This document shows, piece after piece, positions 1-16,652 of a stretch of DNA of 17,095 nt (positions within the stretch are counted from its first letter, which is position 1; every line of letters starts with the position of its first letter). The stretch comes from a virus (lineage: Duplodnaviria; Heunggongvirae; Uroviricota; Caudoviricetes). Both the position numbers and the translations under genes were made by a program. Below the pieces are notes generated by a model that made no database searches, was not told the origin of the DNA, and worked only from the letters and a program-made list of their open reading frames with translations. The stretch covers positions 1 to 17,095 of the IMG/VR virus record IMGVR_UViG_2778261641_000010, one strand, 5' to 3'.

Positions 1-17
1 TTGCAGGAAACGGTAAA
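1..17. other. Inner end of the partner (left) crossover site / terminal inverted repeat of the invertible segment, truncated by the window edge
   Basis: Bases 1..17 are the reverse complement of 3027..3043 (1 mismatch). Bases 1..9 (ttgcaggaa) would be the last 9 bp of an inverted 26-bp site whose remainder lies left of the window. Confidence 0.5.
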
Positions 18-954
18 TCAGGCTTCTGGCGCATTACAGAAAAACCAGAACGGCGCAGATATTCCAGGAAAAGATACCTTCACCAAAAATATTGGTGCCT
101 GCCGCGCATACAGCCCATGGCTGAATATTGGTGGCGATAGTCAGGTCTGGACAACCGCGCAATTTATTTCGTGGCTGGAGAGTCAGGGAGCATTTAACCA
201 TCCTTACTGGATGTGCAAAGGCTCATGGGCTTATGCAAATAATAAGGTCATTACAGATACAGGTTGCGGAAATATTTGTCTTGCAGGTGCTGTGGTGGAA
301 GTTATTGGCACTCGCGGCGCAATGACCATACGCGTTACTACGCCGAGCACGTCCAGCGGTGGCGGAATTACTAACGCTCAATTCACTTATATTAATCATG
401 GTGATGCTTATGCTCCTGGCTGGCGACGAGACTACAACACGAAAAACCAGCAGCCTGCATTTGCTTTAGGGCAAACAGGACGCAGGGTCGCAAATGATAA
501 AGCTGTTGGCTGGAACTGGAATAGCGGCGTTTATGATGCAGATATCAGTGGCGCATCGACATTAATCCTCCACTTTAATATGAATGCGGGGAGTTGCCCT
601 GCTGTACAGTTCCGCGTGAATTATAAAAACGGCGGTATCTTTTATCGTTCAGCGCGTGATGGTTATGGCTTTGAAGCTAACTGGTCAGAGTTTTACACCA
701 CAACCCGCAAACCCTCTGCGGGGGATGTTGGTGCATATACGCAGGCAGAGTGTAACTCAAGGTTTATTACAGGTATTCGCCTGGGCGGTCTGTCATCTGT
801 TCAGACATGGAATGGTCCCGGCTGGTCTGACAGGTCAGGTTATGTCGTTACAGGTTCAGTTAACGGAAACCGTGATGAATTAATTGATACAACACAGGCA
901 AGGCCAATTCAGTATTGCATTAATGGAACGTGGTATAACGCGGGGAGTATTTAA
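1..954 (+). CDS. Alternative tail-fibre C-terminal (variable) domain cassette, 5'-truncated by the window edge; currently not joined to the stf constant part
   Basis: Open frame from base 1 to the stop at 952-954. The first 17 nt (ttgcaggaaacggtaaa, encoding LQETVN) are the reverse complement of 3027..3043 inside stf with one mismatch, then the sequence diverges. The C-terminus ...[14 protein letters not shown] matches the stf C-terminus ...FRPIQKYINGTWYN. It is followed 2 nt later by a tfa-type gene. No start codon or RBS of its own, as expected for a silent cassette. Confidence 0.7.
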
Positions 955-956
955 TT

Positions 957-1490
957 ATGATGCACTTAAAAAACATTACTGCTGGCAATCCTAAAACGAA
1001 AGAACAATACCAGCTAACAAAGCAATTTAACATCAAATGGCTTTATTCAGATGATGGAAAAAACTGGTATGAGGAACAAAAGAACTTTCAGCCTGATACG
1101 TTGAAAATGGTCTATGACCGTAACGGCGTTATTATTTGTATTGAAAAGGATGTTTCAGCAATTAATCCAGAAGGCGCAAGCGTCGTTGAGGTTCCTGATA
1201 TTACAGCAAATCGCCGGGCTGATATTTCGGGTAAATGGATGTTCAAAGATGGCGTAGTGGTAAAGCGAACTTATACCGAGGAAGAGCAGAGGCAGCAGGC
1301 GGAAAATGAAAAGCAAAGCCTGCTACAGCTCGTCAGGGATAAAACCCAGCTATGGGACTCACAGCTACGGCTGGGCATCATTTCCGACGAGAATAAACAA
1401 AAATTAACCGAGTGGATGCTCTATGCGCAGAAAGTCGAATCTACAGACACTTCCAGCCTGCCAGTAACGTTTCCCGAACAACCTGAATGA
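957..1490 (+). CDS. tfa: Tail fibre assembly protein (Tfa/Mu U-like chaperone), partner of the silent fibre-tip cassette
   Basis: 177-aa ORF. The N-terminal ~110 aa ([22 protein letters not shown]...[19 protein letters not shown]) are near-identical to the minus-strand Tfa at 1519..2046, and the C-terminal ~60 aa are divergent. It starts 2 nt after the upstream fibre-tip stop. Confidence 0.8.
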
Positions 1491-1493
1491 GAC

Positions 1494-1520
1494 AAGGCCC
1501 GATAGCGGGCCTTAATTTTT
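1494..1520 (+). terminator. Hairpin terminator between the two convergent tfa genes
   Basis: aaggcccg-atag-cgggcctt forms an 8-bp GC-rich stem with a 4-nt loop, followed on the plus strand by aatttttatt and preceded by an A-rich run on the minus strand. It lies exactly between the convergent stops at 1490 and 1519. Confidence 0.55.
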
Positions 1521-2046
1521 ATTCAGGCTTTTGTGGCCATTCAGGATTTGCCGTATCCACACGGCTGACCAGAACACTGTAGCGTTCCCATGACTCCAGT
1601 CGTGCGCGTTCCTCATCCGTCGCCATATTCAGCCTGACGGCGCGTTCCAGTGGCTGAATAATGCTTTCTGCTTCGGAAAGTAACGCGGCCTTTTGTGATT
1701 CTGCCTGTTGTTGCTGCTCATCTGTCGTATAAATCCGTTTAACTACAGTTCCGTCCTTAAACATCCACTTCCCTGAATCATCGGCGCGACGATTGGCTGT
1801 TATATCTGGAATCTCAACGACACTAAAGCCTTCGGGATTAAGCGTTGAGGCATCTCTGGTGATAGCGACAATAATATTATTTTCATCGTAAACAATCTTT
1901 ATTGTGTCTGGCTGAAAGTTCTTCACTTCCTCATACCAGTTTTTTCCGTCTTCGGACCATAACCAGATAACATCAAAATTCTTTGTTAGCTGATATTGCT
2001 CTTTTGTTTTTGGATTACCTGACTTAATGTTCTTTAAATGCTGCAT
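1519..2046 (-). CDS. tfa: Tail fibre assembly protein (Tfa) for the currently expressed fibre tip
   Basis: 175-aa ORF. ATG at 2046 lies 3 nt after the stf stop, with AGGTG upstream. The C-terminal motif ...[27 protein letters not shown] is typical of lambda Tfa / Mu U-family chaperones. Confidence 0.85.
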
Positions 2047-2049
2047 AAC

Positions 2050-5000
2050 TTACACCTGCGCAACGTTATACCATGTGCCATTGATGTATTTTTGTATCGG
2101 CCTGAAGATGGCTTCATCATCGCCATCTACTTCACCAATGATTCTTAATCCGGTAATCGTGTGTCCGGCTTTTTCATAACGACCACCACGCGCCATCAAT
2201 TGAACAACACGTGTGCCAAGTCGGACATCTCTCACATAGCGTGAGTCAAAATTGCCATAATTTCCGGGAATAATTTGCGCACCGCAAAGCCAGTTACCGT
2301 TATTGTCCATGTACGCCTGACCATCGGTGCCATTGGCTGTCCTTGAGTTATTAATCATGTAGATGCCAAATTGCTTGTTCCCCAGTCCACCTATCATGAA
2401 CTTGCGGTCAGCGTGATTCTGGCGAAGCAACGCCTGAGCGCTATCAGTGTTAACTATATTTTTCCCAAAGATAGCGTTGTTATCGCGCATCTGAATCCAC
2501 ATACCATTACTGCTGTTAATAGCAAAACGGTCTGAAAGCGTCTCCCCTGAAACATTAAGGCCACGCCCCATCGAAACAGCGCCAGTAGCGTTATTAATCC
2601 ATAATGGCCTTAATCCGTTATAAGTCCCCATGTTGTCACCGGAGTTTGTCAACATGAAGTATGTATTTGAACCATCATTACGAATAAAGAATCCGTAATT
2701 ACCATAAGCAATACGTAGGCCGTTTGCTGATTTTGATATGACTTCGCCATTTACAATGGCATTGACAAGAACATACAAAGCATCCCATTTAAGATTCATC
2801 AGGTCTTTTGTTGTGGTGCTTTGTTTGCTTCTCCATTTGAAATATTCATTGCCGTTGTCGCCTGTTTCAAACCACATGTATGAATCAGTATCGCTGTCGG
2901 CATCATTTTTAAAACCAATCTTCGCCCAGTCAGTATTTCGAATCCAGGCAAGGATTGAGTCATTTTCAAAAGTAAGCCCGCCGGACAAGGTATCGCCTGT
3001 CTTTTGAACGGCGTTACCAGCCTTGTTTACCGTTTCCTGTAAACCGAGGTATTCGATAACGGCGGCAACGGTCGATTTCGCAAGAATATCCCGCCCGACT
3101 TTTGTCAGGGTTGCCAGGCTGGCGACATCATTCCCCGTAAAATACGGAAACCTGTCTGCCGCAGTAGCAAGCCCGGCCAGCGCCGTCAGGGTGGCATCTT
3201 TCGGTTGCTTACCCGCAAGCGCGTTAGTCATGGTGGTCGCAAAATTCGGGTCGTTTCCCAGCGCCGCCGCCAGCTCGTTCAGCGTGTTCAGTGCGTCAGG
3301 TGACGAATCTACAAGGGCGGCAATCGCAGCCATAACGAAAGCCGTGCTTGCGATCTGAGTATTGTTAGTACCTTTTGGCGCAGTTGGTGTTGTTGGTGTT
3401 CCGGTCAGCGCCGGACTGTTCAGGGGCGCTTTCTTGTTCGTTTCATCCATTACCACCTTTACAGCTTTCGATGTCGCGGCCAGTGTTTCAGACGTGCTGT
3501 TGGTGGCGCTACTGAGCTGGACAAGGCCTTTTCGCGTCGTGCTGGCATCCTGCGCAGTATATTTACCGTTAGCAAGATCATACGCGGCCTTTACTGCTTT
3601 CGGCGTTGCAGCCTGCGTTTCAGACGTGCTGTTGGTTGCACTACTAAGCTGAACCACACCTTTTTTCGTCGTGCTCGCATCCTCAAGCGCCACGGCGGAT
3701 GCAATATCCTCTGCCCGTTTTGCCGCTGTCTCAGCGCGCGTTGCTGCAGATTCCGCCGTACTTTTGCTCTGAGCTGCTGCCGTCGCACTACCAGCAGCCT
3801 CTGTCGCCTTCGTGGATGCCGTCGTGGCGCTGCCCTTCGCTGCTGACGCCTGTCTGGTCGCCTCATCTTTTGAAGCAGACGCCGATGAGGCCGATGACGC
3901 CGCCGAACTGGCGGACGATGCCGCTGCCGTTTTTGAGGATTCTGCACGGGTTTCCGACACTTTCGCGTTCGTTTCGGATGTCTTCGCTGCGGAAGCTGAC
4001 CTCGCTGCTGCCGTGGCCTGTTCAGTGGCTTCGCCAGCCTTCGTTGTGGCTGTTGAAGCGGATGATGCGGCGCTTTCTGCCGACTTTCCGGCAGCGGTGG
4101 CACTGGCTGAGGCCTGCCCGGCACTTGTTGACGCGGCACTGGCAGATGATGCAGCCGCTGTTTTTGAGCCTGCCGCAGCTGAGGCACTCTGTCCCGCTGC
4201 CGTTTCAGAAGACCTGGCGTTCGTCTCGGACGTCTTTGCCGCCTTCGCGGAATTTCCTGCCGCCGTTGCCGAGGAAGCGGCACTACTGGCGCTTGATGAT
4301 GCGTTCGTTTCTGATGATTTCGCTGCCTCTTTTGAGGCCGCCGCATCCCAGGCTGAGGTGGCAGCTTCTGACGCCTTTGTGGTCGCTGCGGATGCAGAAG
4401 TGGCTGCAGATTTTTGTGACGCTGCCGCATTCGTTTCTGACGTTTTCGCCGCACCGGCACTGGTAGCTGCCGCGCTTTTTGAGGACTCTGCAGCGGCAGC
4501 ACTTTTTGATGCTTCAGTAGCCTTTGTTGATGCCGTTCCTGCGCTGGAAGACGCTGACTGAGCCGACGTCGCGGCCTGCCCGGCTGATGTGCTGGCTGCA
4601 CGTGCTGAGCCTGCAGCATCAGTCGCATGGGTTGCCGCCTCACGGGCTGATGTGCTGGCATCACTGGCTGACTTCTTCGCGGCTGCCGTGTTCTGTGCCA
4701 CCACGGACGCGTTACGCGCCACCTCTTCCACCATCAGCTCAAAACGGCGCAGTGCCTCCGGACGGGCGTCATCCTCCGTCATGGCACCGAGAAAATCATT
4801 CAGCGTACCGGGTCGGGAATCTTCATACACTGTGATGGTCCCGGCATGTGACGGCGGGAATCCTTCCACCAACAGAATAACGCTGTACTGACCGTACTCA
4901 ACGTCCATACTGTAACGCCCGGCTTCATCCGGATTTTCAGATGCCAGCGTGTTCACCACCACCGTGGTACTGTTACGTTTTGCTTTCAGCTGGATTGTGC

Positions 5001-5058
5001 AGTTCTGTACCGGTTTTCCTGTTCCGTCTTTCAGTACACCTGAAATTTTTACTGCCAT
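2050..5058 (-). CDS. stf: Side tail fibre protein Stf: lambda-like N-terminal constant part, long Ala/Ser/Thr-rich repetitive shaft, invertible C-terminal tip
   Basis: 1002 aa from the ATG at 5058 (MAVKISGVLKDGTGKPVQNCTIQLKA..., which I recognise as the lambda Stf N-terminus), with a GGAG RBS 5 nt upstream. The GTG two codons further upstream abuts the RBS and is rejected. Phage tail-fibre repeat motifs (DASTTxKGxVQLSSATNSTSE) occur twice. A gix-like site lies in frame at 3034..3059. Confidence 0.85.
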   Translation of the reverse strand: MAVKISGVLKDGTGKPVQNCTIQLKAKRNSTTVVVNTLASENPDEAGRYSMDVEYGQYSVILLVEGFPPSHAGTITVYEDSRPGTLNDFLGAMTEDDARPEALRRFELMVEEVARNASVVAQNTAAAKKSASDASTSAREAATHATDAAGSARAASTSAGQAATSAQSASSSAGTASTKATEASKSAAAAESSKSAAATSAGAAKTSETNAAASQKSAATSASAATTKASEAATSAWDAAASKEAAKSSETNASSSASSAASSATAAGNSAKAAKTSETNARSSETAAGQSASAAAGSKTAAASSASAASTSAGQASASATAAGKSAESAASSASTATTKAGEATEQATAAARSASAAKTSETNAKVSETRAESSKTAAASSASSAASSASSASASKDEATRQASAAKGSATTASTKATEAAGSATAAAQSKSTAESAATRAETAAKRAEDIASAVALEDASTTKKGVVQLSSATNSTSETQAATPKAVKAAYDLANGKYTAQDASTTRKGLVQLSSATNSTSETLAATSKAVKVVMDETNKKAPLNSPALTGTPTTPTAPKGTNNTQIASTAFVMAAIAALVDSSPDALNTLNELAAALGNDPNFATTMTNALAGKQPKDATLTALAGLATAADRFPYFTGNDVASLATLTKVGRDILAKSTVAAVIEYLGLQETVNKAGNAVQKTGDTLSGGLTFENDSILAWIRNTDWAKIGFKNDADSDTDSYMWFETGDNGNEYFKWRSKQSTTTKDLMNLKWDALYVLVNAIVNGEVISKSANGLRIAYGNYGFFIRNDGSNTYFMLTNSGDNMGTYNGLRPLWINNATGAVSMGRGLNVSGETLSDRFAINSSNGMWIQMRDNNAIFGKNIVNTDSAQALLRQNHADRKFMIGGLGNKQFGIYMINNSRTANGTDGQAYMDNNGNWLCGAQIIPGNYGNFDSRYVRDVRLGTRVVQLMARGGRYEKAGHTITGLRIIGEVDGDDEAIFRPIQKYINGTWYNVAQV
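3034..3059. other. gix/cix/pix-family 26-bp recombination (crossover) site for a Gin/Pin-type serine invertase, embedded in stf
   Basis: ttcctgtaaaccgaggtattcgataa: imperfect dyad around a central GA, and from memory a ~23/26 match to Mu gixL (TTCCTGTAAACCGAGGTTTTGGATAA). It sits exactly where the two fibre-tip sequences stop being alike. It encodes ...IEYLGLQE... in the stf frame. Confidence 0.7.
3437..3700 (-). repeat. Tandem direct repeat (2 x 132 bp, imperfect) inside stf encoding duplicated phage tail-fibre repeat motif
   Basis: The block cagacgtgctgttggt(g/t)gc(g/a)ctact(g/a)agctg appears at ~3489..3520 and ~3621..3652, 132 bp (44 codons) apart. Encoded peptides are DASTTKKGVVQLSSATNSTSETQAATPKAV and DASTTRKGLVQLSSATNSTSETLAATSKAV. 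Confidence 0.7.
3700..4730 (-). repeat. Low-complexity Ala/Ser/Thr/Lys-rich periodic region of stf (fibre shaft) with recurring AAKTSETNA-type units
   Basis: The translation shows AAKTSETNAAAS / AAKSSETNASSS / AAKTSETNARSS / AAKTSETNAKVS units. All three frames of both strands are open over much of this stretch because of the GC-rich repetitive composition. Confidence 0.6.
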
Positions 5059-5067
5059 ATTCACTCC

Positions 5068-5096
5068 ACAAAAAAGCCCGCCTGAACCGGCGGGCT
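5068..5096 (-). terminator. Rho-independent terminator downstream of lom, immediately upstream of the stf RBS
   Basis: Minus strand AGCCCGCC-GGTTCA-GGCGGGCT (8-bp GC stem) followed by TTTTTTGTGG, running straight into the stf GGAG RBS and ATG. Confidence 0.7.
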
Positions 5097-5122
5097 GTCA
5101 TAACACTGTGTTACCTGGCTAA

Positions 5123-5722
5123 TCAGAATTTATAACCGACACCCACGATGAAACCGTCAGTGCGCCAGTCGCCACTGCCGGAACCTTCATAAGCAAGGTC
5201 AATGGCCACGGATTCGGTCGGGTTAAACTGCACGCCAGCCCCCCACGCCAGAGACGTGTTGCTGTGGCGACCGCCATCACTCCCGGTCAGCACATCGTGC
5301 GTTTTCCCCTTGTTGTCAGTTACGCGGAGATAATCCCCGGAGAACGTCGAAACACGGCTGTAAGCCACACCCGCCATCGCATAAGCACTGAACCATTCAT
5401 TCACGCGTACAGACGGCCCCGCCATCACGCTGAACCAGCGGTTACGCACTGAATCTTCATGCCAGCGGGTATCGCTGTAACGGGTAATCTGGCGATTCTT
5501 GTCTCCTGCATAGCTGAATGACGTCACCAGCCCCAGCGTGTCCGTAAATTCATAACGGTATTTCACGTTAATGCCCTTCAGGTCATCACTGCCTGGCATA
5601 TCAGTATGGGTCTGAAGATACCCGGCGCTTAGTGTGGACTGATGCTCTGCTGCGCTCGCTGGCGTACCAGCGGCAACCAGCCAGACTACTGCGGACAGAA
5701 TAACAGCACATAATTTACGCAT
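5123..5722 (-). CDS. lom: Lom outer-membrane protein (Ail/Lom/PagC/OmpX-family beta-barrel); lysogenic-conversion moron
   Basis: 199 aa. N-terminal signal peptide [29 protein letters not shown]-terminal ...[10 protein letters not shown] beta-barrel signature, and strong resemblance to lambda Lom as I recall it ([10 protein letters not shown]...[11 protein letters not shown]...[34 protein letters not shown]). RBS AGAGGT 5 nt before the ATG. Confidence 0.9.
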
Positions 5723-5743
5723 AATTACCTCTCGCTTTTCTGC

Positions 5744-5770
5744 AATAAAAAAGGCGCCATTTCTGGCGCC
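5744..5770 (-). terminator. Rho-independent terminator after J, upstream of lom
   Basis: Minus strand GGCGCCA-GAAA-TGGCGCC (7-bp stem, GNRA-type loop) followed by TTTTTTATT, about 20 nt after the J stop. Confidence 0.7.
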
Positions 5771-5789
5771 CGTATCTGGGTTATAAAAT

Positions 5790-8700
5790 TCAGCTAATCG
5801 TGATGCCTGCAGTGGCTTTCTTCATCACAACAACCAGCAAATCGCTGATACTTGCTGTGGGATACCAGTCATTTACCCACCATGCTGATACAGAAAACTC
5901 CAGTGTCATTACACCACTGCCTGCAGGCATATCAATAACACCCGTGTATATCAGCGTATTATCCAGAGCCGTTCGGTTATAAATTTCAGCCCCGTTTTTC
6001 TTCACTATCAGGCGGCATGACGAATAAGTATCGCTATTCTCCCGCTCATGTCTGGCACCGCTGAAAGCCACCGCTGGAATAACAATTTGCCGGTCAAACG
6101 GCTGATCGTCATAAACCCTGACGGTAATGGTCCCTGATGGCCACCGCTCCGGAGCACGGGAGTCCCGGGGGAAAGCTTTGCCCACTGTTTTAACGAGATC
6201 GCCTTCAATCTGGTTCGCGGACAGTTTTCCCAGAACCCGACAGTTCTCGTTAATCGTGACGTTGTTGAGCGTCCCGGAGTTCGCATTCACGTTACCGCTG
6301 ATATCGGCATTTTTCGCCGTCAGCCGCCCGTCCGGTGTCAGGGAAAATGCCGGAGGATTACCGCCGCTGGTAATGGTCGGAGCCGTCAGGCGTTTCAGGA
6401 ACACGTCGTTCATGAATATCTGATCGCCCTGACCAACAAACATTGGTCTTGTGTTGCCATTAGACGGATCAATAAACGCGATACGGTTAGCGGCAACCAG
6501 GAACTGGCTCAGTTTGCCTTCCTCCGTGTCCTCCATGCTGAGGCCAATACCCGCGACATAATGTTTGCCGTCTTTGGTCTGCTCAATTTTGACGCCCCAC
6601 ATGGCATTCCACTTATCGTTGGCGTCCTTCCACTCTTTCGAAAACTGCTCCAGTTTGCTGGCGTTATCTTCCGTCAGCTCAAAGTTTTCCAGTAGCTCCT
6701 TGCCGAGATGCGTTTTATTGATCAACCCTTTATAAAAATTCAGATAACCTTCCGCATCATCGCTCGCCCGACCGACGGCCTCCACAAATGCCGATTTACC
6801 AACGGTATTCACGCTGCGGATATAAAAGTAATAATCATAACCCGGCTTAATATTGCTACTGGCAGCTATCCAGTACAGCGCCGTGCCAAGATAGCGGGCT
6901 GTGGTTTCAACCTGCCTGATATCAGCAATCCGCTTTTCCGAGAACCAGAACTCAAACTGCACCGTCGGGTCATATACAGCCAGTTTCGGGACCGCTGTTA
7001 TCTGAAAATACCCTGGTATCAGTTCAATAGTGACAGGCGCTGCAGGTGCGGCAATCCGGAACGATACCGATGCCGGATCGCCCTGCTGCCCCCACGCATT
7101 TGCCGCCCGGACCGTCAGCGTGTAACGCCCCAGCGCCAGCTGCCTGAAGCGGTATGTGGTTTCCGTCGTCCGGACCGTGCTGACCAGCCGCTCACTGCCG
7201 TCATCCGCTGTTACGGTCAGACGGAGCAGGAAGCTCACGCCCTTCACCACCTTCGGCGTGTCCCAGCGGGCCAGTACCTGATATTCCCCGCTGTCTGCGG
7301 AGACTTCGGCGGTCAGATGCTGCACTGCTGGCGGCGTGACACCATTCACCGTGCCGCTCTGGTCGCCGTCAAAGTGCGCCCCGTTATCCACGATGGCTTC
7401 TTTTTCCGGTACATGCTGCACGGCGGTGATGGCATACGTGCCGTCGTCGTTCTCACGGATACTCACGCAGCGGAACAGGCGCTGGCGCAGCGTCGGCAGC
7501 TTCAGCCCCCATACGCTGTATTCAGCAACGCCGTCAGGAACACGGCTCACTTTCACCTTCACGCCGTCGGCGACGGACTGAACCTCCACGCTGACCGGAT
7601 TGCCACTTCCGTCAACCAGGCTTATCAGCGTGGTACCGGAGGATGGCAGCGTGATTTCACGGTCGAGCGTCAGCGTCCGGGTCTGGCTGTTCACCGCCAG
7701 CACACGACCACCGTTGCTGATACCGGCATAGTCATCATCGCAGATTTCAATGACATCGCCCGGTACATGGCGAAGCCCTTCAGCACCCACGCTGAAGTCC
7801 ACGGTCTGCGTTTCCAGCAGCTCCGTTTTAATCAGCCACAGCCCGGCGCGGTGTGCCTGCCCCCGGCTGGTACAGCCAAAGGCATCCATCTTCGTGACGT
7901 TACGACCGTAACGGGCAATGGCCTGCGTGTCCTCCACAAGCTCTGTTGCCGTCTCCCAGCCATTGTCCGGGTCAATCCAGTTCACCTCAACGGCATTATG
8001 GCGGTCCTTCAGGGCGCTGAAGCTGTAGCGGAACGGCGCGCCATCATCCGGCATCACCACATTACTGCGGTTATAGGTCCACACCTTATCCGACTGTCGG
8101 TCCTGCACGAACGTCAGCGTCTGCCCGTTCCATACCGGCATACAGCGCATCGCCGAGCAGAAATCACTGAGCACATCCCACGCCTTGCGCTGTGTGGTCA
8201 GGTACGCATTACAGGTGATGCGCGGCTCCGTGCCGCCAAAGCCGTCCGGCACTGACTGGTCGCAGTACTGGCCGATGACATACAGCGCCCATTTGTCCAC
8301 ATCCGCCGCACCAAGACGTTTCCCCATGCCGTAGCGCGGGTGGGTCAGCATATCCCACAGACACCAGGCCATGTTGTTGCTGTATGCTGGTTTTAACGTT
8401 CCGTCCCAGATACCGCTGTATTGTCGCGTCTGCGGGTTATAGTTCGACGGCACCTGCAGAATGCGCCCGCGAAGATGATAATTACGGCTCACCTGCTGGC
8501 TGCCGAACTGCTCCGAGTCCACCTGTACGCCGACCAGTGCCGTGTTCGGGTAGCACTGTTTCACATCGATGATCTCGGTGTATGACGACCAGAGCGTTTT
8601 GTTCTGCAGCTGGTCTGTGGTGCTGTCCGGCGTCATCCTGCGCATCCGGATATTGAACGGGCGCGGCGGCAGGTTATCCACCACCACCGAGGCCAGATAC

Positions 8701-9185
8701 TGCGAGGTGGTTTTGCCCTTAATGGTGATGTCTTTTTCCGTCACCCAGCCACCGTTACGCTGTATCTGAACCAGCAGGCGGACTTCCGACGGATTCCTGT
8801 CTCCCTTTGAGGTGGTTTCCACCAGTGCCTGTACACCGAAGGTAAAGCGCAGACGGTCGATGTTTGCCGACGTAATGGTACGGGTGATCGGCGTGTCATA
8901 TTTCACTTCCGTACCCAGCACCGTCTCGGAGCCGGAGGATTCAAACCCCTCCGGCGGTGTCTGCTCCTGCTCACCTGCCCGGAACACCACCGTGACACCG
9001 GCGATGTTGGTATTCCCTTCACTGTCCAGCACCGGCGTACTGTTCAGCAGCACGCTTTTTAATCCATCCACCGGACCTTCTATCGGCCCTTCGCTGATGG
9101 CATCGATCACACTCAGCAACTGCGTGGACTTCAGGTTATCCTTCGCTTCGCGCGGGGTATGCCCCTTACTGCTGCCTTTACCCAT
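5790..9185 (-). CDS. J: Tail tip / host specificity protein J (central tail fibre)
   Basis: 1131 aa. The N-terminus [45 protein letters not shown]... is the lambda J N-terminus as I recall it. The size and the position after I fit, and a GGAG RBS precedes the ATG. Confidence 0.9.
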
Positions 9186-9195
9186 TCCTCACGCT

Positions 9196-9227
9196 CCATA
9201 AACGACAAAACCGCCCGGAGGCGGTTT
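9196..9227 (-). terminator. Terminator-like hairpin between I and J
   Basis: Minus strand AAACCGCC-TCCG-GGCGGTTT followed by TGTCGTTTAT (interrupted U-tract), in the 60-nt I-J gap. Confidence 0.45.
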
Positions 9228-9245
9228 CACATAAAACATTTTGCA

Positions 9246-9893
9246 TCAGCGACCAATCACCACAACCTGACCACCGTCCCCTTCGTCTGCCGTGCTGATC
9301 TCCTGAGAAACCACCCGCGACCCCACGCGCATTTCACCGTACAGAACGGGCAGAACATTGCCCTGGGCAACCATGTTATCCAGTGAGGAGAAATAGGTGT
9401 TCTGTTTGCCGTTATCTGTACTTGCTGCCGTGGGCGTCCTGGCTTTCGGTGCCAGCATCTGCGCCACTCCGCCCAGGATCATACTGGCCCCTGCCGCATA
9501 CATGCCCGATAAAGCCGCGGCACCCAGCCAGCCTGCGGGGTTCCACCACGCCACCGCAAACAGCGCCGCACCCAGCACCGCCTGAAAAACACCGCCACTT
9601 TTGGCTCCCGCCAGACGCGGCACGATGTGGATCACTGCACCATTTGCCAGCGGCTCATTAAGACGGGCAGATAATTCGGTTTCACCTGCATCACGCCCGG
9701 CAATGCGCACCTGATACCAGCCGTCATTCAGTTTCTGACGAAACGCCGGGAGCTGTGTGGACAGCGCCCGGATGGCTTCAGCCCCCGTTTTCACACGAAG
9801 GTCGATGCGGCGGCCAAATCGTTGCAAATCCCCGTAAAGGCAGATGCGTGCCATGCCCGGTGACGCCAGAGGGAGTGTGTGCGTCGCTGCCAT
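9246..9893 (-). CDS. I: Tail assembly protein I (tail tip assembly, ubiquitin-like N-terminal region family)
   Basis: 215-aa ORF whose C-terminus is ...NTYFSSLDNMVAQGNVLPVLYGEMRVGSRVVSQEISTADEGDGGQVVVIGR. It lies between K and J as in lambda. Start uncertain: ATG at 9893 (GAGAGAGG ~11 nt upstream) or ATG at 9854; both overlap the 3' end of K. Confidence 0.8.
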   Translation of the reverse strand: MAATHTLPLASPGMARICLYGDLQRFGRRIDLRVKTGAEAIRALSTQLPAFRQKLNDGWYQVRIAGRDAGETELSARLNEPLANGAVIHIVPRLAGAKSGGVFQAVLGAALFAVAWWNPAGWLGAAALSGMYAAGASMILGGVAQMLAPKARTPTAASTDNGKQNTYFSSLDNMVAQGNVLPVLYGEMRVGSRVVSQEISTADEGDGGQVVVIGR

Positions 9894-10534
9894 TTGTCGG
9901 TATACCTCTCTCGTTTGCTCAGTTGTTCAGGAATATGGTGCAACAGCTCGCCGTCGCCGCAGTAAATGGCGGCATGATTCGGCACCGATGAACCAAAACA
10001 GCACAGCAGTACATCGCCCGGCTGCGCCGCTGACAACGGCACCTGATACAGCCCCGTTGCCTCCAGATTATCCAGATAGAGATTCTGGCCGTTACGCCAC
10101 CAGTCATCCTCACGATGAAAATCCGGCATCTCAATCCCCGCCAGATGGTAAGCGTCCCGGAACAGCGTGTAACAGTCCGTCACCCCGTGCTCAAAGCGTC
10201 GCCCGGTGAGATGCGGCACACAGCGGAACTTATGAATCGCCCCCCGGCAGACCAGCCACCAAGGCAAATCGCTCTGCACCTGCAGCCGCCTGTCAGCCTC
10301 ACTCAGCCAGGGCAGACCACCGGGGTGGCTGTGGACCAGCGCCACAATCTCACCCTGCATCTCTGCCCGCAGCCAGTCCTCCGGCGACATCCGGAAATAC
10401 GCCTCCGGCTCACCGGAGATATTCACGCAGGGAAAATATCTTTCCCCTTCCGGCGTTCTCACCACGAAGCCGCACGACTCCGCTGGCGCACATCGCCGGG
10501 CGTGCGCCAGAATCGCTGATTCTGTCTGTGTCAT
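9791..10534 (-). CDS. K: Tail assembly protein K with JAMM/MPN metalloprotease and NlpC/P60 domains
   Basis: 247 aa from the ATG at 10534 (MTQTESAILAHARR...), 4 nt after the L stop. Intact JAMM motif HSHPGGLPWLSEAD (H-x-H-x7-S-x2-D), then a Cys/His-containing NlpC/P60-like region (GVTDCYTLF...NHAAIY...HH). The 14 codons upstream in the ORF track lie inside L and are rejected. Confidence 0.85.
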   Translation of the reverse strand: MTQTESAILAHARRCAPAESCGFVVRTPEGERYFPCVNISGEPEAYFRMSPEDWLRAEMQGEIVALVHSHPGGLPWLSEADRRLQVQSDLPWWLVCRGAIHKFRCVPHLTGRRFEHGVTDCYTLFRDAYHLAGIEMPDFHREDDWWRNGQNLYLDNLEATGLYQVPLSAAQPGDVLLCCFGSSVPNHAAIYCGDGELLHHIPEQLSKRERYTDKWQRRTHSLWRHRAWHASAFTGICNDLAAASTFV

Positions 10535-10538
10535 GGGA

Positions 10539-11237
10539 TTACTGCGAAAGTTTGTTAATGGAAAGGAAGCCGCCAAAGTTGCCGACGTTATTGCGAAACT
10601 TACAGCCGCTCAGGCATTTGCTGCATTTATCCTTCGTGATATCGGACGTCGGCTGGTCATATTCATCCGCGACAGCCGGACCATGATAACCGCACTCATC
10701 ACCGCGATAGGTCCAGGTGCAGGTGTTGGCCAGCATGATGCGCCCCGGAAAAACAGCACCATCCGTTTCCGTCGGTGTGGAGAGCACAAAGGAGGCACTG
10801 ACCGCACTCAGTTCGCTGCACTGCTCAATGCGCCAGCGGCTGATCACCTCCTGCTCAGGATCGGCATCGCTGTTTCCGGTGACGAAGTTCACCGCATCCA
10901 GAAAACGGGCGTAAACCTTACGCCTGACCACCGTTCCGCCGACCAGACTCTGCAAATCTTCCACCATCCCGGTGACCATGCCGTGCAGATTAGAGACTTT
11001 CAGAGTTGGCCTGGCGCTGGCTCCTTTACCGTTCATCTCAAATCCGCTCCCCTGAATGGGATACGGCTGATACTGTCGCCCCTGCCAGGTGACCGGCTCA
11101 CCTTTTTCGTTCTGCTCATTACAGAAAAAATAACGCTCTCCGCCGACTTCTGTCAGATCGACTTCCCAGAGCACGACCAGCGCGGATTGCTCCGCTTTTG
11201 TACACTCATTCAGTGTTTCCTGCTGTATATCCTGCAT
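10539..11237 (-). CDS. L: Minor tail protein L
   Basis: 232 aa, lambda L-like length and position; contains a Cys cluster (C-x2-C ... CSKCLSGC). Its start overlaps the M stop. Confidence 0.88.
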   Translation of the reverse strand: MQDIQQETLNECTKAEQSALVVLWEVDLTEVGGERYFFCNEQNEKGEPVTWQGRQYQPYPIQGSGFEMNGKGASARPTLKVSNLHGMVTGMVEDLQSLVGGTVVRRKVYARFLDAVNFVTGNSDADPEQEVISRWRIEQCSELSAVSASFVLSTPTETDGAVFPGRIMLANTCTWTYRGDECGYHGPAVADEYDQPTSDITKDKCSKCLSGCKFRNNVGNFGGFLSINKLSQ

Positions 11238-11578
11238 CAGTGAGTGACCTCTTCAAAGGTACAGTTAAAATCGGTATACATGGCATTATCCGAAATGCTC
11301 CACTCCCTGCAGACAACCCGGACAGTCCTGTTGTGTTTTGGCGGACGCCACAAAAAAGCACGAATCCCGGCATGACGGGATAAAAAACTGTCCAGCGCGG
11401 CACGGGAATATTCATCTGTGACACGAAATACCGGTTTAAACGTTTTCAGATCCGCATTCAGACCACCAGCCCGTCGCTGTTCATATCCGTCACCAAACTT
11501 TACCGTAATAACTGATGGCTTTCGTGTCGTCTCCATCCCCTCACGGGGGATCCAGTTAAAAACTTCAGGCTCAGGCAC
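11237..11578 (-). CDS. M: Minor tail protein M
   Basis: Conserved FGDGYEQR and WRPP motifs as in lambda M (FGDGYSQR...). Preferred start is the GTG at 11578, which has AGGAGGA 7 nt upstream and gives ~113 aa; the alternative is the ATG at 11593. It overlaps the tape-measure stop (11571-11573) by a few nt. Confidence 0.78.
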   Translation of the reverse strand: MPEPEVFNWIPREGMETTRKPSVITVKFGDGYEQRRAGGLNADLKTFKPVFRVTDEYSRAALDSFLSRHAGIRAFLWRPPKHNRTVRVVCREWSISDNAMYTDFNCTFEEVTH

Positions 11579-14500
11579 TGTACAATCCTCCATCCCGACG
11601 CGATGACTGCATAATTGACACAACCCTGCTGTCGATCAGATCCACCAGCCCCCTGGCTGACTGCGTATCTATCTCGCCATTGCTCCCTTTATTCTGAATA
11701 CTGATGTGATACACGGGAGAATAAACAAATCCACCGCCACCATTCACATTGCCAATGGCTCTGACTCCAAGAGAGCCGTCCGCTGCCCGAGTCAGTGGCA
11801 TGATAGCTTCAGGCCCGGCCTCGCCCATCAGCCCGGCACCTTTCGCAAAAGCAAAATACGTCGGGGTATCCACAATGGTGTTACTGTAAGCACTCAAATT
11901 TGCCGATGTATAAACACCACCTTTTGCGTTTGCCACTGCACCGGAAAGCCAGTCGCCGACTGTACCAAGCCATCCTCCGGCACCGGACATGCTTTTGGAA
12001 AGTGACTTCAGCCCGTTAACGATGGCAGCGTTCATCAGAATTTTTGAAACTTCCTGGAGAATTGAACTCCCCCAGTTTCTCCAGTCCACAACATTTCCGG
12101 CCAGTGCATCGGAAATATTTGATACCAGCCCGTCCATAGTGGAAATGACAGCATCTGCCGCCTGCGAAGCATAATCAGTGGCACTGTCTGCCCAGTTCGT
12201 CAGCCCCTCCTGGAGTCCGGCATTCCAGTTACTGCGTAAAGCATCAGCCTTTGCATAATAATCCTGCTGATCGCTGAGACGCTCTTCCAGATATTTTTCA
12301 TTCAGCGATTTTTCCTGTTTCCACAGGGCTTCTTCAATTTCTCCGGCCTGATACTGTCTCAGCAGCTCGTTATTTTTCTGCTCAAACGCCTGCCGGATAC
12401 TCCACATTTCCTGGAGTCGTTCACGCATCCGTGAGCCTTCACCATATCCCAGCAACTGCGCGTCGTCAGATGCCCGGGCACTGGCATTACTGTCCGCCAG
12501 ACTGCTTTCATACGCGGCAAGCTGCTCACGAATCTTTTTCTGGTCGATGAGTGCCGCATTCTGTAAAAGCGTTTTTTTCTGCGCTTCTGACAGGGTTGAT
12601 AATTCGCCCTGACTGACCTGATATTTCATCTTAGCCAGTTCAGTATTCTGCCCTGCCAGTGCTATTTGTTCTTTTTGCTGTTTAATTAGCCGTTTATAAA
12701 TATCTTCTGTTTTTTCCGCTTCGGTCTTTTTATGCGCTTTGGGTTTATTTGCCTGGTTATTTCGCCAGGCATCCAGTGAGTTATTGATATAATTCTGTCT
12801 GGCTGTCTGATACGCCTCTCCCACAAAGCCGAGATCATCCGCAGCATAACCCAGTCGGGCACGCTCACGGGCTTCCCCCTTCAGGCGGGACAGAGCCAGT
12901 TCGCGCTCGCTGTTATTCAGTGCGGTCTGCTGTTTATCATCCAGGGTTGCCTGTGGTAGCCGTAATGGTGCATTCACCAGCCCCTGTCGCTGCTGAAGTA
13001 ATTCATTACCAAGCCCGAGAAGACGATTAAACTCGGTATGCTGCCCATTCATGATCAACAGGGACTGATACGCTTTGTTTTGTTCCGCCGCCTGTTGACG
13101 GATCAACGCCACCCGTCGCTCCTCCAGCCCGGCAAGCACATCCTGAATAGATTGCGCTTTGCCCTGCATTTGAGTGAGGCGAGACTGTTCAACTGCCAGT
13201 TGATTTGTTGCTTCTGCAAGCCCTTCTGTGACAGTTTTCACCGACGTCATATGGTTAATCATAAAACCGTTATCGGTTGTCCAGCCCGGGTTTGCCAGCA
13301 CATACTGATAGCCAGCAATTTTTTCCTGTAAGGATTTAATCTTACTTTTCTGCTCGTCAATTAACCTGTTTTGCTCATCAAGTGCCTGCCGCGTCTTTTC
13401 CTCATTATCTGACGCTTCAGGAAGCGACATTGCCGACGTTTTCTGGCGAATTTCGTCGATTGTTGCGGCATACTGGCGTGCAGATTCTCTGGCCTGCTCC
13501 TGATTCTGATACATCGTGTACCAGGCCGTCGCCCCCAGCATGACGAGTCCCGGCACACCACCAACCAACCCCAGCGCACCACTTAACAGACGACTCCCCA
13601 CTGACGTGACAGTATTCAGCGTTGTCTGTGCCGCTGTTCTGGCCGCAATATTACGGGTAAGTGACGCCTGGGCAGCTGTCAGCTTCGCTTCTGCTGCGGC
13701 CTGCCTTTCGGTACCGCGAGCAGCAACAACCGCCTGTTGCGCACGATAAACCGCCGCACGCGCCCTGGCGGTTGCTATCTGTGTCCCCCGAAGTTGCGCT
13801 TCAGCAAGAGCCACTTCGTTTCTGGCTGCAGTAATTAATCCGGCAGTTGCAGATCCAGCAGACGACGCCATATTGCCAAAATATCGGGCTACCCCGACGG
13901 CAACCAGTGCGCCAGCTGCAGCAGCCACGGTATCAATATTGTCTGCAACACCATTCAACACCCCGGTGAGTGTCTTTGTCACTCCGCTTGCCTCGTTCGC
14001 ACCACCAACCCAGGCCATAAAGGCGTTTTCAACTTTGGTTGCAGAGGATGAAACAGTATCAGGCATTGCTGCATATTCATCACGCAACGCCCCAAGCTGA
14101 CTAATCAGTGCAGGAACAACCTTATCGGCGGTCAGTTTTCCGTTATCCGCCATGGCTTTCAGATCCTTACGGGCAACACCCATTCCCGCAGCCAGCGCAC
14201 GAATAACACGATCGCCGTTCTCATTCACAGAGTTAAATTCTTCACCGCGCAGCACTCCCTGCGCCAGTGCCTGACTGAACTGCGTGATCACCGAACTGGC
14301 TTCTGCTGTACTGGCACCGGATAATTTCAGGCCCGTGGAGATCGCCTCGGTGACTTTCAGTACCTCCTCAGAACTGTAGCCATACTCCCGCATGGAAGCT
14401 GCAGAGCGGGCAAAAAGGCTGGCGTTATCAGAAAACGCCGTTCCCGTTCTCTGGCTGATTGCCATTAATTCACGTTGTGATACCTGAAAATCATCACTGG

Positions 14501-14816
14501 ACTGTGAAGCCTGCTTCAGGCGGGCATTTACTGAATTCCACTCATCGGCGAGAGAAATAAGATGACCGGTAGCAAAAGCTCCGGCAAATGCCCCCGCCAT
14601 ATTCAGTGCCGAAGATTTAGCTGTATTTATCTGATCCGTCACTTCTGCCAGTGCACGCCGCATTTCACGGGATGCAGCAGCGGACTGCCGGCCTCCGTTC
14701 TGCATGGTACGGTAGTAATCCTGCCCCATACGCGAAGCCCGGGAGATCTCTGACTGGAATGACCGGGAATTTGCCGAGATTTTAATAATCAGTTCACGTA
14801 ATGTCGCCACACTCAT
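11571..14816 (-). CDS. Tail tape measure protein
   Basis: 1081 aa, largely alpha-helical/coiled-coil-like composition (Ala/Gln/Leu/Glu-rich), with Gly-rich hydrophobic stretches. It lies between G/GT and M. GGAGA precedes the start (ATG at 14816 or the in-frame GTG two codons later). Confidence 0.9.
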   Translation of the reverse strand: MSVATLRELIIKISANSRSFQSEISRASRMGQDYYRTMQNGGRQSAAASREMRRALAEVTDQINTAKSSALNMAGAFAGAFATGHLISLADEWNSVNARLKQASQSSDDFQVSQRELMAISQRTGTAFSDNASLFARSAASMREYGYSSEEVLKVTEAISTGLKLSGASTAEASSVITQFSQALAQGVLRGEEFNSVNENGDRVIRALAAGMGVARKDLKAMADNGKLTADKVVPALISQLGALRDEYAAMPDTVSSSATKVENAFMAWVGGANEASGVTKTLTGVLNGVADNIDTVAAAAGALVAVGVARYFGNMASSAGSATAGLITAARNEVALAEAQLRGTQIATARARAAVYRAQQAVVAARGTERQAAAEAKLTAAQASLTRNIAARTAAQTTLNTVTSVGSRLLSGALGLVGGVPGLVMLGATAWYTMYQNQEQARESARQYAATIDEIRQKTSAMSLPEASDNEEKTRQALDEQNRLIDEQKSKIKSLQEKIAGYQYVLANPGWTTDNGFMINHMTSVKTVTEGLAEATNQLAVEQSRLTQMQGKAQSIQDVLAGLEERRVALIRQQAAEQNKAYQSLLIMNGQHTEFNRLLGLGNELLQQRQGLVNAPLRLPQATLDDKQQTALNNSERELALSRLKGEARERARLGYAADDLGFVGEAYQTARQNYINNSLDAWRNNQANKPKAHKKTEAEKTEDIYKRLIKQQKEQIALAGQNTELAKMKYQVSQGELSTLSEAQKKTLLQNAALIDQKKIREQLAAYESSLADSNASARASDDAQLLGYGEGSRMRERLQEMWSIRQAFEQKNNELLRQYQAGEIEEALWKQEKSLNEKYLEERLSDQQDYYAKADALRSNWNAGLQEGLTNWADSATDYASQAADAVISTMDGLVSNISDALAGNVVDWRNWGSSILQEVSKILMNAAIVNGLKSLSKSMSGAGGWLGTVGDWLSGAVANAKGGVYTSANLSAYSNTIVDTPTYFAFAKGAGLMGEAGPEAIMPLTRAADGSLGVRAIGNVNGGGGFVYSPVYHISIQNKGSNGEIDTQSARGLVDLIDSRVVSIMQSSRRDGGLYSA

Positions 14817-14826
14817 TCTCCGGACG

Positions 14827-14847
14827 AAAAAAACCGCCGAAGCGGTT
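14827..14847 (-). terminator. Short terminator/attenuator-like hairpin between GT and the tape measure gene
   Basis: Minus strand AACCGC-TTCG-GCGGTT (5-6 bp stem, UUCG-type loop) followed by TTTTTTT, then the GGAGA RBS of the tape measure gene. Confidence 0.4.
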
Positions 14848-14855
14848 ATGTTGAC

Positions 14856-15544
14856 TCACTGAGACACTATTAAAAGCGCGTTTTCCAGTCCGGCAAATGG
14901 ATCTGAGACGCCTTCTGTCTGCTCTTGTTCCCACTGAAGAAGCGCATCATTCAGTGGGACTTTGACACCCTGCGCACCGTAAACCGCAGAAACTATCTGG
15001 GCAGCCCGGATATCAGCCCGCTCGTCACCCAGCGGGCTGAACCTGTCAAATTCTGCCCACATCATGATTTCTGATGCGGACATTTCCCGGCGTAACTCTG
15101 ACAATGTGCGCCCCATCCTGAGCGCCAGCATCATCAGAAAACGCATCCCCGGAAGCTCTACTTTTTTTTAACCTCGCCGGCATCACTGATCAGTTCCAGA
15201 GACTGCCGAAGAAGCCGCGCATGCACCGGGCCATACACGGCAATCACCTGTTCACGATCATCCTCTGAAAATACAGGTTGCAGTCCGGTATCACACAGAA
15301 CATCAATGAACAGTTCAACATCTGCCTCCAGATTTCGGCGGGCGCGCTCCGCAACGGATAACGGTGTCTCATCATCTTTTGCTTTAACGATCTCCTGCCA
15401 GCGCAACCAGGCTTCTGCAGAAGGTTCCCGTAATACAACCGTTGCCCCTTCCCATTCAGGCACATCAACAGTTTTATGGCGAAACCCCGACATCGTTGCC
15501 AGTGCCAGATTGCGGATATTTTTAGTCATCACATCTATCCTCAT
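14856..15544 (-). CDS. Tail assembly chaperone GT fusion produced by programmed -1 ribosomal frameshift
   Basis: The ORF at 14856..15146 has codon phase exactly -1 relative to G. The G frame ends ...GTT AAA AAA AAG TAG, so a slip on A_AAA_AAG (15161..15167) continues K-V-E-L-P-G-M-R-F-L... to the stop at 14856. The downstream ORF has no plausible independent RBS. Confidence 0.65.
15158..15544 (-). CDS. Tail assembly chaperone G (0-frame product)
   Basis: 128 aa; the ATG at 15544 overlaps the major-tail stop (TAATG). An alternative start is the ATG at 15529, with GAGGA 8 nt upstream. Position immediately before the tape measure gene and the acidic C-terminal half fit a G-type chaperone. Confidence 0.75.
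   Translation of the reverse strand: MRIDVMTKNIRNLALATMSGFRHKTVDVPEWEGATVVLREPSAEAWLRWQEIVKAKDDETPLSVAERARRNLEADVELFIDVLCDTGLQPVFSEDDREQVIAVYGPVHARLLRQSLELISDAGEVKKK
15161..15167 (-). promoter_or_regulatory. -1 programmed ribosomal frameshift slippery heptamer A_AAA_AAG, directly followed by the 0-frame stop TAG
   Basis: Run of 8 A then G on the minus strand (plus strand c-tttttttt-a at 15161..15170); A_AAA_AAG is a classic slippery sequence (e.g. dnaX). Confidence 0.65.
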
Positions 15545-16248
15545 TAACTGACGGTAACAGTGCAGGAAGTGGAGGTCACCTTGTTAACAGGGCTTGCTGA
15601 ATCAGAAATCTCGCAGGTATACGCACCGGCATCACCTGATGCTGCTGATGCCTTACTGAATGTTGCCGCCGTCTGTCCGGAAACAGGAGAACTACCTTTC
15701 TTCCAGACATAAGAATAAGGCGGCACACCACCGGCAGCCTCAACCACCATTTCGAGTTTCGCTCCGGCAGAAACCTGCAGCGTGCTGTTTAAATCGACCT
15801 TCACTTTCAGCGGCTCTGTCGTCAGCACAGGTTTACCTTTCAGGCGCAGGGAAAACGTTGCAGCCACAACACCATTAGTTCCTGCAGACCAGGTATGCTG
15901 ACGCACCTCTGCCATAAAGGTAAATCCGTTGCCTGACGGAAAAATAACTTTAAAGCCATACGTGGTGTCATTGTCATAGGCACTGCGCAACGCGTTCTGG
16001 GCAGCATTGAGGTAAAAGTTGCCTGACATGGAAATCTCTGACGCGGCACCAAGGCCGTTAATATTTTCCTGCTCAACAGAACACAGCGTGGTGACATCAA
16101 TATCCTGCTTTTGTCCTGCGGTAAACTGCACCTCTTTGATTGTACAGCTCAGGCCAAGATAGCTGGCAGAATCCAGGGTTTCTGCTGTTACCGGTGCAGA
16201 CGAAATCATAATTTTCGTCAGTTGCGAACGCTCAAAATTAGAGGACAT
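15544..16248 (-). CDS. Major tail protein with C-terminal Ig-like (Big_2-type) domain
   Basis: 234 aa from the ATG at 16248 (MSSNFERS...), with AGGAGA 5 nt upstream. The ORF-track 5' extension runs through a terminator hairpin and is rejected. The C-terminal ~80 aa (...VSAGAKLEMVVEAAGGVPPYSYVWKKGSSPVSGQTAATFSKASAASGDAGAYTCEISDSASPVNKVTSTSCTVTVS) resemble an Ig-like decoration domain. It sits just upstream of G/GT. Confidence 0.8.
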   Translation of the reverse strand: MSSNFERSQLTKIMISSAPVTAETLDSASYLGLSCTIKEVQFTAGQKQDIDVTTLCSVEQENINGLGAASEISMSGNFYLNAAQNALRSAYDNDTTYGFKVIFPSGNGFTFMAEVRQHTWSAGTNGVVAATFSLRLKGKPVLTTEPLKVKVDLNSTLQVSAGAKLEMVVEAAGGVPPYSYVWKKGSSPVSGQTAATFSKASAASGDAGAYTCEISDSASPVNKVTSTSCTVTVS

Positions 16249-16260
16249 ACTCGTCTCCTG

Positions 16261-16287
16261 AAAATAAAAAACCCGCCAGCGGCGGGT
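16261..16287 (-). terminator. Rho-independent terminator-like hairpin in the leader of the major tail gene
   Basis: Minus strand ACCCGCC-GCT-GGCGGGT (7-bp GC stem) followed by TTTTTATTTT, then AGGAGA and the ATG of the major tail gene. Confidence 0.6.
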
Positions 16288-16307
16288 GGGTAAAATCATT
16301 AACGACC

Positions 16308-16652
16308 TCAGGCTATTACCTGAAATTCAAGCGTGGATCTGCTCAGACGGGAATCAGGATCATAACCCTGAGTTTTAGAAATAACGGAAGGTGCAAGTTG
16401 CCTTACCGCATCAAGCGCCTGCTCACGGATATCATCTGCGTCATCAGGTACTGTTGCCCAGACATCGATCTGCACGGTAATTCTGGATTCAGCCTGACCA
16501 TCAAGCACATCAGACGCAGTGTCAGACACCACAGAAAATACCAGCCATGGCGGAGATACCGCAGGCTTTCCCTCCGTCAGCGGGACCACATAAGGATAAA
16601 CCTGTCCTCCGGCCAGTTGAGACAGCAGGGAATACAGTGTGGTCTCTCTCAT
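16308..16652 (-). CDS. Tail completion / tail terminator-type protein (DUF3168-like; lambda U position)
   Basis: 114 aa; its ATG overlaps the stop of the upstream gene (ATGA). The call rests on size and position immediately before the major tail gene. Confidence 0.65.
   Translation of the reverse strand: MRETTLYSLLSQLAGGQVYPYVVPLTEGKPAVSPPWLVFSVVSDTASDVLDGQAESRITVQIDVWATVPDDADDIREQALDAVRQLAPSVISKTQGYDPDSRLSRSTLEFQVIA

Follow-up and report, generated by a model that had tools for sequence, protein, structure and literature searches.

A Mu G/P1 C-type tail fibre cassette joined to a lambdoid side tail fibre in a caudoviral genome

We analysed a stretch of 17,095 nucleotides (nt) from a tailed phage (Caudoviricetes; IMG/VR record IMGVR_UViG_2778261641_000010, positions 1 to 17,095), referred to below as the window. 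At its left end, two variable tail fibre tips, Sv' and Sv, are each followed by a gene for a tail fibre assembly chaperone of the Tfa type, and Sv is continuous with a lambdoid side tail fibre (Stf). An earlier note on this DNA had described the two tips and their chaperones as modular pairs. It missed the invertible segment in which they lie, and the "pairs" are, as judged from the sequence, the two alternative states of a DNA-inversion host-range switch. Similarity to annotated phage segments identifies window 1..3060 as a homologue of the Mu G/P1 C invertible segment, fused in frame at a gix-like site to Stf.

The features of this region are listed below in window coordinates (aa, amino acids; NTD and CTD, N- and C-terminal domain).

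1..9, plus strand: inner 9 nt, TTGCAGGAA, of the left gix/pix-like 26-bp site; the remaining 17 nt lie beyond the left window end.
1..954, plus strand: Sv', the alternative tip, a homologue of the variable part of Mu S'; its reading frame is already open at nt 1 and lacks a start codon.
754..951, plus strand: distal ~66-aa module of Sv', with the 13-aa terminal motif at 901..939.
957..1490, plus strand: tfa', U' homologue, 177 aa; NTD (aa 1 to ~107) at 957..1277 and helical CTD (aa ~108 to 177) at 1278..1487.
1494..1513, between the convergent tfa genes: GC-rich hairpin, probably a bidirectional terminator (terminator scan; RNA fold -21 kcal/mol, z=-6.7).
1519..2046, minus strand: tfa, homologue of U and P2 G, 175 aa; NTD at 1726..2046 and CTD at 1522..1725.
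2050..3034, minus strand: Sv, the variable fibre tip in the expressed position, within the invertible segment; includes RPIQKYINGTWYN at 2065..2103.
~2105..2290, minus strand: distal patch of Sv, of P2 H/P1 S type and not of Mu type.
3035..3060, minus strand: right 26-bp site, complete; its reverse complement is TTATCGAATACCTCGGTTTACAGGAA, and it encodes ..IEYLGLQE.. of Stf.
3061..5064, minus strand: constant part of Stf, a lambdoid side tail fibre, lying beyond the invertible segment and continuing in frame into Sv.

Gene order, recombination sites and protein domains

The coding parts form two convergent sets, Sv' (1..954, plus) and tfa' (957..1490, plus) facing tfa (1519..2046, minus) and Sv (2050..3060, minus), with both chaperone open reading frames (ORFs) at the positions that had been given before. 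Each tfa gene lies directly downstream of its own fibre part, the gaps being 2 nt (954 to 957) and 3 nt (2046 to 2050). Stf and Sv make up a single 1004-aa ORF (2050..5064, minus) that crosses the right recombination site, and the Sv' frame, already open at nt 1, matches it (LQETVN...), so that the constant part could be read into either tip. The hairpin between the two tfa genes has an equivalent in the D108 record, where it is annotated as a rho-independent terminator on both strands.

The right site is an inverted copy of the left site (inverted repeat I4). The window begins at nt 18 of the left site and contains only its inner 9 nt; the inverted-repeat arms at 1-41 and 3002-3042 are 73% complementary. 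In relatives, the position of the left site reads TTATC[TC]AAAACCTCGGTTTACAGGAA, with a recombinase gene just beyond it. The Mu counterpart of the right site, TTATCCAAAACCTCGGTTTACAGGAA, is found at the annotated boundary of the G segment, and the right-site sequence is also present in lambdoid and P2-like relatives. To the left of nt 1 we would expect the half-site TTATC.AAAACCTCGG and a pin or gin gene. The idea that the window starts where it does owing to an assembly break at a flipping segment was dropped, as a site of this kind forms the end of only one of 11 short IMG/VR contigs.

Both Tfa proteins match the Pfam family Caudo_TAP (PF02413, E~1e-37; E=6e-37 for Tfa'). Their scores of 127.2 and 126.8 bits, against a curated cut-off of 22.1 bits, and the coverage of profile positions 2-131 of 131 place both in this family. 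The two proteins are 58% identical (BLASTP, E=4e-77). The earlier note had them alike over the first ~110 aa and divergent after that, and this is borne out by a global alignment, in which identity is 73.6% over aa 1-110 vs 33.8% over aa 111-177 and all of the quoted motifs are found. By region, nucleotide identity is 70% in the N-terminal vs 40% in the C-terminal part. Within the NTD, third codon positions are 44.5% identical, which is near saturation, and the amino acids are kept.

An AlphaFold2 (AF2) model of Tfa', for which the input was an alignment of two sequences only, has a confident helix-turn-helix at residues 108-161 (helices 108-138 and 144-161; predicted local distance difference test score, pLDDT, 86-96) and a pLDDT below 50 in the NTD. 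With identity dropping from 74 to 34% at about aa 110 and the modelled hairpin starting at 108, the break in identity coincides with the domain boundary at about aa 107. Both chaperones have the build of an N-terminal fibre-binding domain followed by a helical CTD, where the roles of the domains are those given in PMC9608196. The NTD of Tfa is 94-97% identical to the NTDs of Mu U (the Tfa of PDB entry 5YVQ) and P2 G, and that of Tfa' is 73-75% identical to the same two.

It had been claimed that the tips share only a terminal motif. RPIQxxINGTWYN does end both of them (the copy in Sv is RPIQKYINGTWYN), and inverted repeat I3 (901-940 / 2064-2103) corresponds to this region in the two tips; however, the shared part is larger. 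The one meaningful local alignment of Sv and Sv' is confined to the final 66-71 aa (38% identity, E=8e-8), a C-terminal module of which the motif is the end. The first ~12 aa are also common to both tips (LQETVN.A..A.QK); the inverted repeat belonging to the recombination site encodes them.

Chance or low-complexity sequence as the source of the similarity between the chaperones and between the tips has a negligible probability. The E-values of both alignments and the presence of Caudo_TAP in both Tfa proteins speak against it, as do the homologues of both proteins annotated in dozens of phage genomes. The similarity is not one of low-complexity sequence and lies far beyond chance.

Relationship to the Mu, P1, P2 and e14 systems

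In the PDB, Tfa matches the Mu "Tail fiber assembly protein U" (5YVQ_B, E=1.6e-109) at ~96% identity; as counted by eye in the alignment, about 7 of its 175 aa differ. The best PDB match of Tfa' is this Mu U chain (E~1e-63), and the search of PDB sequences returned no U' chain. Compared with Mu U', Tfa' is 95% identical in the NTD and 100% in the CTD. The similarity of Sv to Mu S (5YVQ_A, E=7e-195) stops short of the last ~55 aa of the tip, and Sv' matches residues 172-488 of Mu S' (8JU3_A, E=1e-213). At the nucleotide level Sv' is 88-99% identical to Mu in 100-nt bins; the Mu record labels the equivalent stretch "carboxyl terminal end of S' in G(-) phage". Overall, window 1..3100 is 92-95% identical in nucleotide sequence to its counterparts in five phages, namely the G segment in D108 and Mu and the C segment in P1, P7 and D6. 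The records of these five phages annotate S, U, U', S', gin or cin and the recombination sites.

As in the G segment of Mu and D108, the four coding parts stand in identical convergent order, with 88-100% nt identity (100-nt bins) over most of 1..3060; a 26-bp site with a CCTCGG core lies at the boundary between the constant and variable parts of S, and a terminator hairpin separates U from U'. The constant fibre is different: it is a lambdoid Stf in the window (phage_tail_N, 1004 aa in total), whereas Mu has Sc, and nt identity to Mu falls to 68% beyond the right site, in Stf. The window also differs from Mu in having no gin gene and in 2 nt of the outer half of the right site. A further difference lies in the distal ~80 aa of Sv (2050..~2290), which are 47-74% nt identical to Mu and of P2 H/P1 type. 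Outside these ~80 aa (2050..2290) the expressed tip is 93-100% Mu-like, and its last 34 aa match P2 H exactly. In D108, the only difference from the window is at 2105..2200, directly after the terminal motif. The distal part of Sv thus forms a short mosaic patch within the end that binds the receptor.

The C segments of P1, P7 and D6 are 92-95% nt identical to window ~26..3041, and the match extends through the distal Sv patch, in which Mu diverges. The C segment of P1, however, measures 4.2 kb, with its crossover sites further out; the counterpart of the window sites is internal to P1 Sv and Sv', and window 1..300 is 59-79% identical to P1. P2 shares the last 34 aa of Sv with its H protein, and the NTD and CTD of the window's U-type Tfa are 97% and 90% identical to those of P2 G. 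Unlike in the window, fun(Z) comes next after G, and there is no invertase or convergent second fibre/tfa set in the P2 stretch shown. The P segments of e14 (pinE), Rac (pinR) and Qin (pinQ) resemble the window in their lambdoid prophage fibre context, combined with a Pin-type invertase, but the e14 P segment is 1.8 kb long with stfP/tfaP/tfaE/stfE (PMC12529663) whereas the window segment is a 3-kb set of Mu type.

The 3.06-kb cassette is found in complete Escherichia coli genomes in several backgrounds, at 92-96% identity. It is present in Mu-like prophages in both orientations relative to the invertase gene (L001 vs L002), in a P2-like prophage (L004) and on plasmids of ~91-94 kb, as well as in the genomes of phages P1, P7 and D6. 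Among lambdoid prophages at the Rac site, two have the window orientation (L008, L009) and one has the opposite orientation, with Stf fused to an S'-type tip (L003). The finding of both orientations rests on these relatives and not on the window copy, for which we infer inversion.

The lambdoid relatives closest to the window occupy the Rac site (ompN-uspF) and have pinR in their vicinity. In 30 complete E. coli genomes, a match spans at least 80% of window 1..5800, at ~92% identity in the best matches, and those members that we inspected share the lambdoid arrangement of the window; no complete E. coli genome in the collection exceeds ~96% over the cassette or ~92% over the cassette plus Stf. 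The inspected Mu-like, P2-like and lambdoid relatives all have a recombinase gene or a remnant of one beside the cassette. In the lambdoid relatives, a truncated recombinase and a truncated tfa adjoin the cassette (L003 8114..9118; L008 2603..2929; L009 1924..2953), which look like the remains of successive cassette replacements. Full-length pinR is near the cassette in two of these three relatives (L003 and L009). Inversion in the lambdoid relatives is probably supplied in trans. According to PMC12529663, invertases of the Pin type act in trans on segments other than their own, the Mu G segment among them.

The shaft into which the cassette reads has Pfam matches to phage_tail_N, Phage_fiber_2 and Gp34_trimer; the first of these, in the N-terminal part of Stf, is the lambdoid "prophage tail fibre N-terminal" domain. 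Overlapping shadow ORFs (3591..4664, minus; 3699..4466, plus; 3812..4561, plus) lie over the central, Ala/Ser-rich part of Stf (3590..4670) and are artefacts of composition. Tandem Repeats Finder found no tandem DNA repeats in the Ala/Ser-rich part. The remainder of the window encodes a tail module like that of lambda, comprising Lom, J, I, K, L, M, the tape measure protein, a tail assembly chaperone and further tail proteins, and the scanned ORFs of at least 90 aa in 5000..17095 are lambda-like tail genes.

Docking and recombination at the junction of tip and chaperone

All 80 IMG/VR loci retrieved with U showed 92-97% identity and offered little diversity; diverse fibre/Tfa pairs were therefore chosen from phage records. 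Together with the window, 18 pairs were compared, 17 of which were readable; the P1 pair was left out, P1 being represented in the nucleotide alignment instead. In every case in which the Tfa NTD was at least 36% identical to that of U or U', the fibre ended in [RK]P[IVM]Q..[IL].G.W (Mu, D108, P2, a P2 variant, SEN8 arm a, FSL SP-004, phiP27 and Hafnia yong1). NTDs with 31-35% identity went with a weaker variant of the fibre end, APLQKR.G.QWYTV (Fels-2 arm a, ST64B and SEN8 arm b). Lambda Stf and Fels-2 arm b have no motif, and their Tfa proteins share only the CTD with U. Across these alignments, the terminal motif follows the class of the NTD and not that of the CTD. The co-occurrence of the motif with a U-type NTD in the 17 readable pairs upholds the proposal of modular tip-chaperone pairs with a conserved junction.

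Convergent fibre/tfa pairs are also present in SEN8 (L092) and Fels-2 (L095), both Salmonella P2-like phages. The two chaperones of SEN8 differ in NTD class, and its fibre ends carry the matching motif variants (RRPMQKLIGNQWYN vs APLQKRLGIQWYT), a case within one cassette of the motif co-varying with the NTD.

That the motif tracks the NTD class fits docking of the NTD on a conserved distal module. According to secondary descriptions of the Mu S-U complex 5YVQ (North et al. 2019) in PMC9608196, PMC7291167 and PMC10579305, the NTD was seen bound to the distal fibre and stays on it in the virion. In these sources, the CTD is not resolved in 5YVQ; they treat it as the conserved part of Tfa proteins and as the presumed means of trimerisation and folding. 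We infer that the NTD contacts the conserved terminal module in particular. The earlier note had proposed the reverse, namely that the divergent Tfa C-termini contact the divergent tips, and had named contact by the conserved Tfa region as the outcome that would count against it. The descriptions of 5YVQ in PMC9608196 and PMC7291167 place precisely the conserved NTD on the tip and do not support the proposal.

As a specificity model, the proposal would mean that the variable C-terminal ~60 aa of each Tfa read the variable body of their own tip and that the conserved N-terminus is generic. In tblastn searches of phage genomes, the CTD of U was 80-91% identical to P2-like G proteins, 48% to lambda Tfa and 34% to U'; a U'-type CTD was found in only 63 phage records, and the high-identity matches among those listed were all Mu-, P1/P7- or P2-like phages that also match the cassette, with the others at 30-44%. 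These values place the CTDs of U and U' in different lineages of one family. L041, a P2-like IMG/VR locus, has an S'-type body with an S-type distal module, followed by a Tfa in which the first ~45 aa are U-like and the remainder is U'-like; its U' CTD has been kept with the S' body despite the S/U-type distal module and first ~45 Tfa residues. This arrangement, and the lack of a U' chain in the PDB search, are consistent with a CTD specific for the fibre body, as is the CTD not being resolved in 5YVQ as described. Against this stands the solved complex itself, which PMC9608196 and PMC7291167 describe with the NTD on the fibre and the CTD as a conserved trimerisation module. U-type CTDs moreover serve unrelated tips: P2 H, a third tip in L041 and lambda Stf (at 48% identity). 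The co-occurrence of the U' CTD with S' can also be explained by linkage in a 3-kb cassette that moves as a unit. We regard it as rather unlikely that the C-terminal ~60 aa read the tip body. Equally doubtful is the more specific proposal that the U' CTD is a separate lineage co-adapted to the S' tip body (gp37_C-like fold), under which Tfa CTDs would carry fibre-body specificity.

The junction could alternatively be conserved mainly as a DNA-level linker for homologous recombination that swaps tips and chaperones, and not for protein function. The idea has a precedent, with fibre-module exchange and a conserved junction dating from papers of 1992-94 (cited as references 72-74 in PMC3945230). 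Exchange of patches at the junction does occur in D108 and in L041. The D108-type patch (2105..2200) starts right after the motif. In L041 the two arms are 87-100% identical over ~330 nt centred on the junction (2308..2637 and 3453..3782), and the expressed arm carries a third kind of tip body. Among 91 relatives, 21 blastn high-scoring segment pairs (HSPs) end at 2101-2125 and 22 start at 2201-2225, in a histogram of HSP ends that is contaminated by U/U' cross-matches and serves for qualitative use only. Breakpoints are, however, also frequent elsewhere (~1660, ~2260, ~2440 and ~2760-2800).

In the window itself, the same stretch is roughly 60% identical between the arms, compared with 87-100% in L041, and identity across the tip/tfa junction as a whole is ~60-75%. 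The longest exact matches between the arms are 21, 14 and 12 nt, all in the N-terminal region of tfa, and there is no exact inter-arm match of at least 11 nt in the fibre-terminal motif. Nearly saturated third positions together with such short exact matches argue for selection on the proteins and not for recent exchange in the window; a third-position identity of 44.5% with the amino acids kept is the signature of constraint at the protein level. Patch exchange is seen in D108 and L041, and in the window itself the arms share at most 21 identical nt. The linker role suggested by the earlier note is real but secondary, and we consider it very unlikely that the junction is conserved mainly for it.

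The fibre switch and its significance

Taken as a whole, an invertible cassette of Mu G/P1 C type with two-domain Tfa chaperones is a highly probable explanation of the pattern. The identity of the Mu, P1 and P2 parts, the domain boundary, the split of the CTD lineages and the orientations and patch exchange in relatives come from the present analysis; the binding of the NTD in the crystal and the role of the CTD come from the literature cited above.

Under this explanation, a serine invertase of Gin/Cin/Pin type would flip the cassette and fuse one of the two tips to the constant shaft, resulting in a host-range switch. The present orientation would express Sv, with its distal end of P2 H/P1 type, together with U, and Sv' and U' would be silent until inversion. 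The NTD of Tfa (aa 1 to ~107) would dock on the distal end of the folded fibre and remain there. Both tips keep a related distal ~66-aa module ending in RP[IV]QxxINGTWYN, and for this reason both chaperones would keep a related NTD. The CTD, predicted to be a helical hairpin, would trimerise and drive folding of the fibre. The two CTDs derive from different lineages, that of U being of the mainstream P2 G/lambda Tfa type and that of U' forming a lineage of its own. The junction would be held by selection on the proteins, with homology for occasional patch exchange in the wider family as a by-product.

Several observations weigh against parts of this account. The window contains neither the invertase gene nor 17 nt of the left site. 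The motif and the NTD are adjacent in the DNA, and linkage alone could give their co-occurrence. With the CTD not resolved in 5YVQ, as described, and no U' chain in the PDB search, the CTD may have a fibre-specific role, and in L041 the S' body has retained the U' CTD despite the swap of the distal module.

The system as such is already known. S/U and S'/U' of Mu, their P1 and P2 homologues, inversion by Gin, Cin and Pin, module exchange and the two-domain build of Tfa have all been published; the work cited in these papers dates from 1978 onwards, PDB entries 5YVQ and 8JU3 cover the Mu proteins, and G(+) S/U vs G(-) S'/U' and their host ranges are summarised in PMC4406740 and PMC11915804. Only the lambdoid Stf as host fibre and the P2 H-type distal end of Sv are local particulars of the window. 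For annotation, recognising a lambdoid Stf with a Mu-type switch implies that the prophage can display either of two receptor specificities, provided that it is functional. For fibre engineering, the distal ~66 aa and the Tfa NTD would be the natural unit to keep together.

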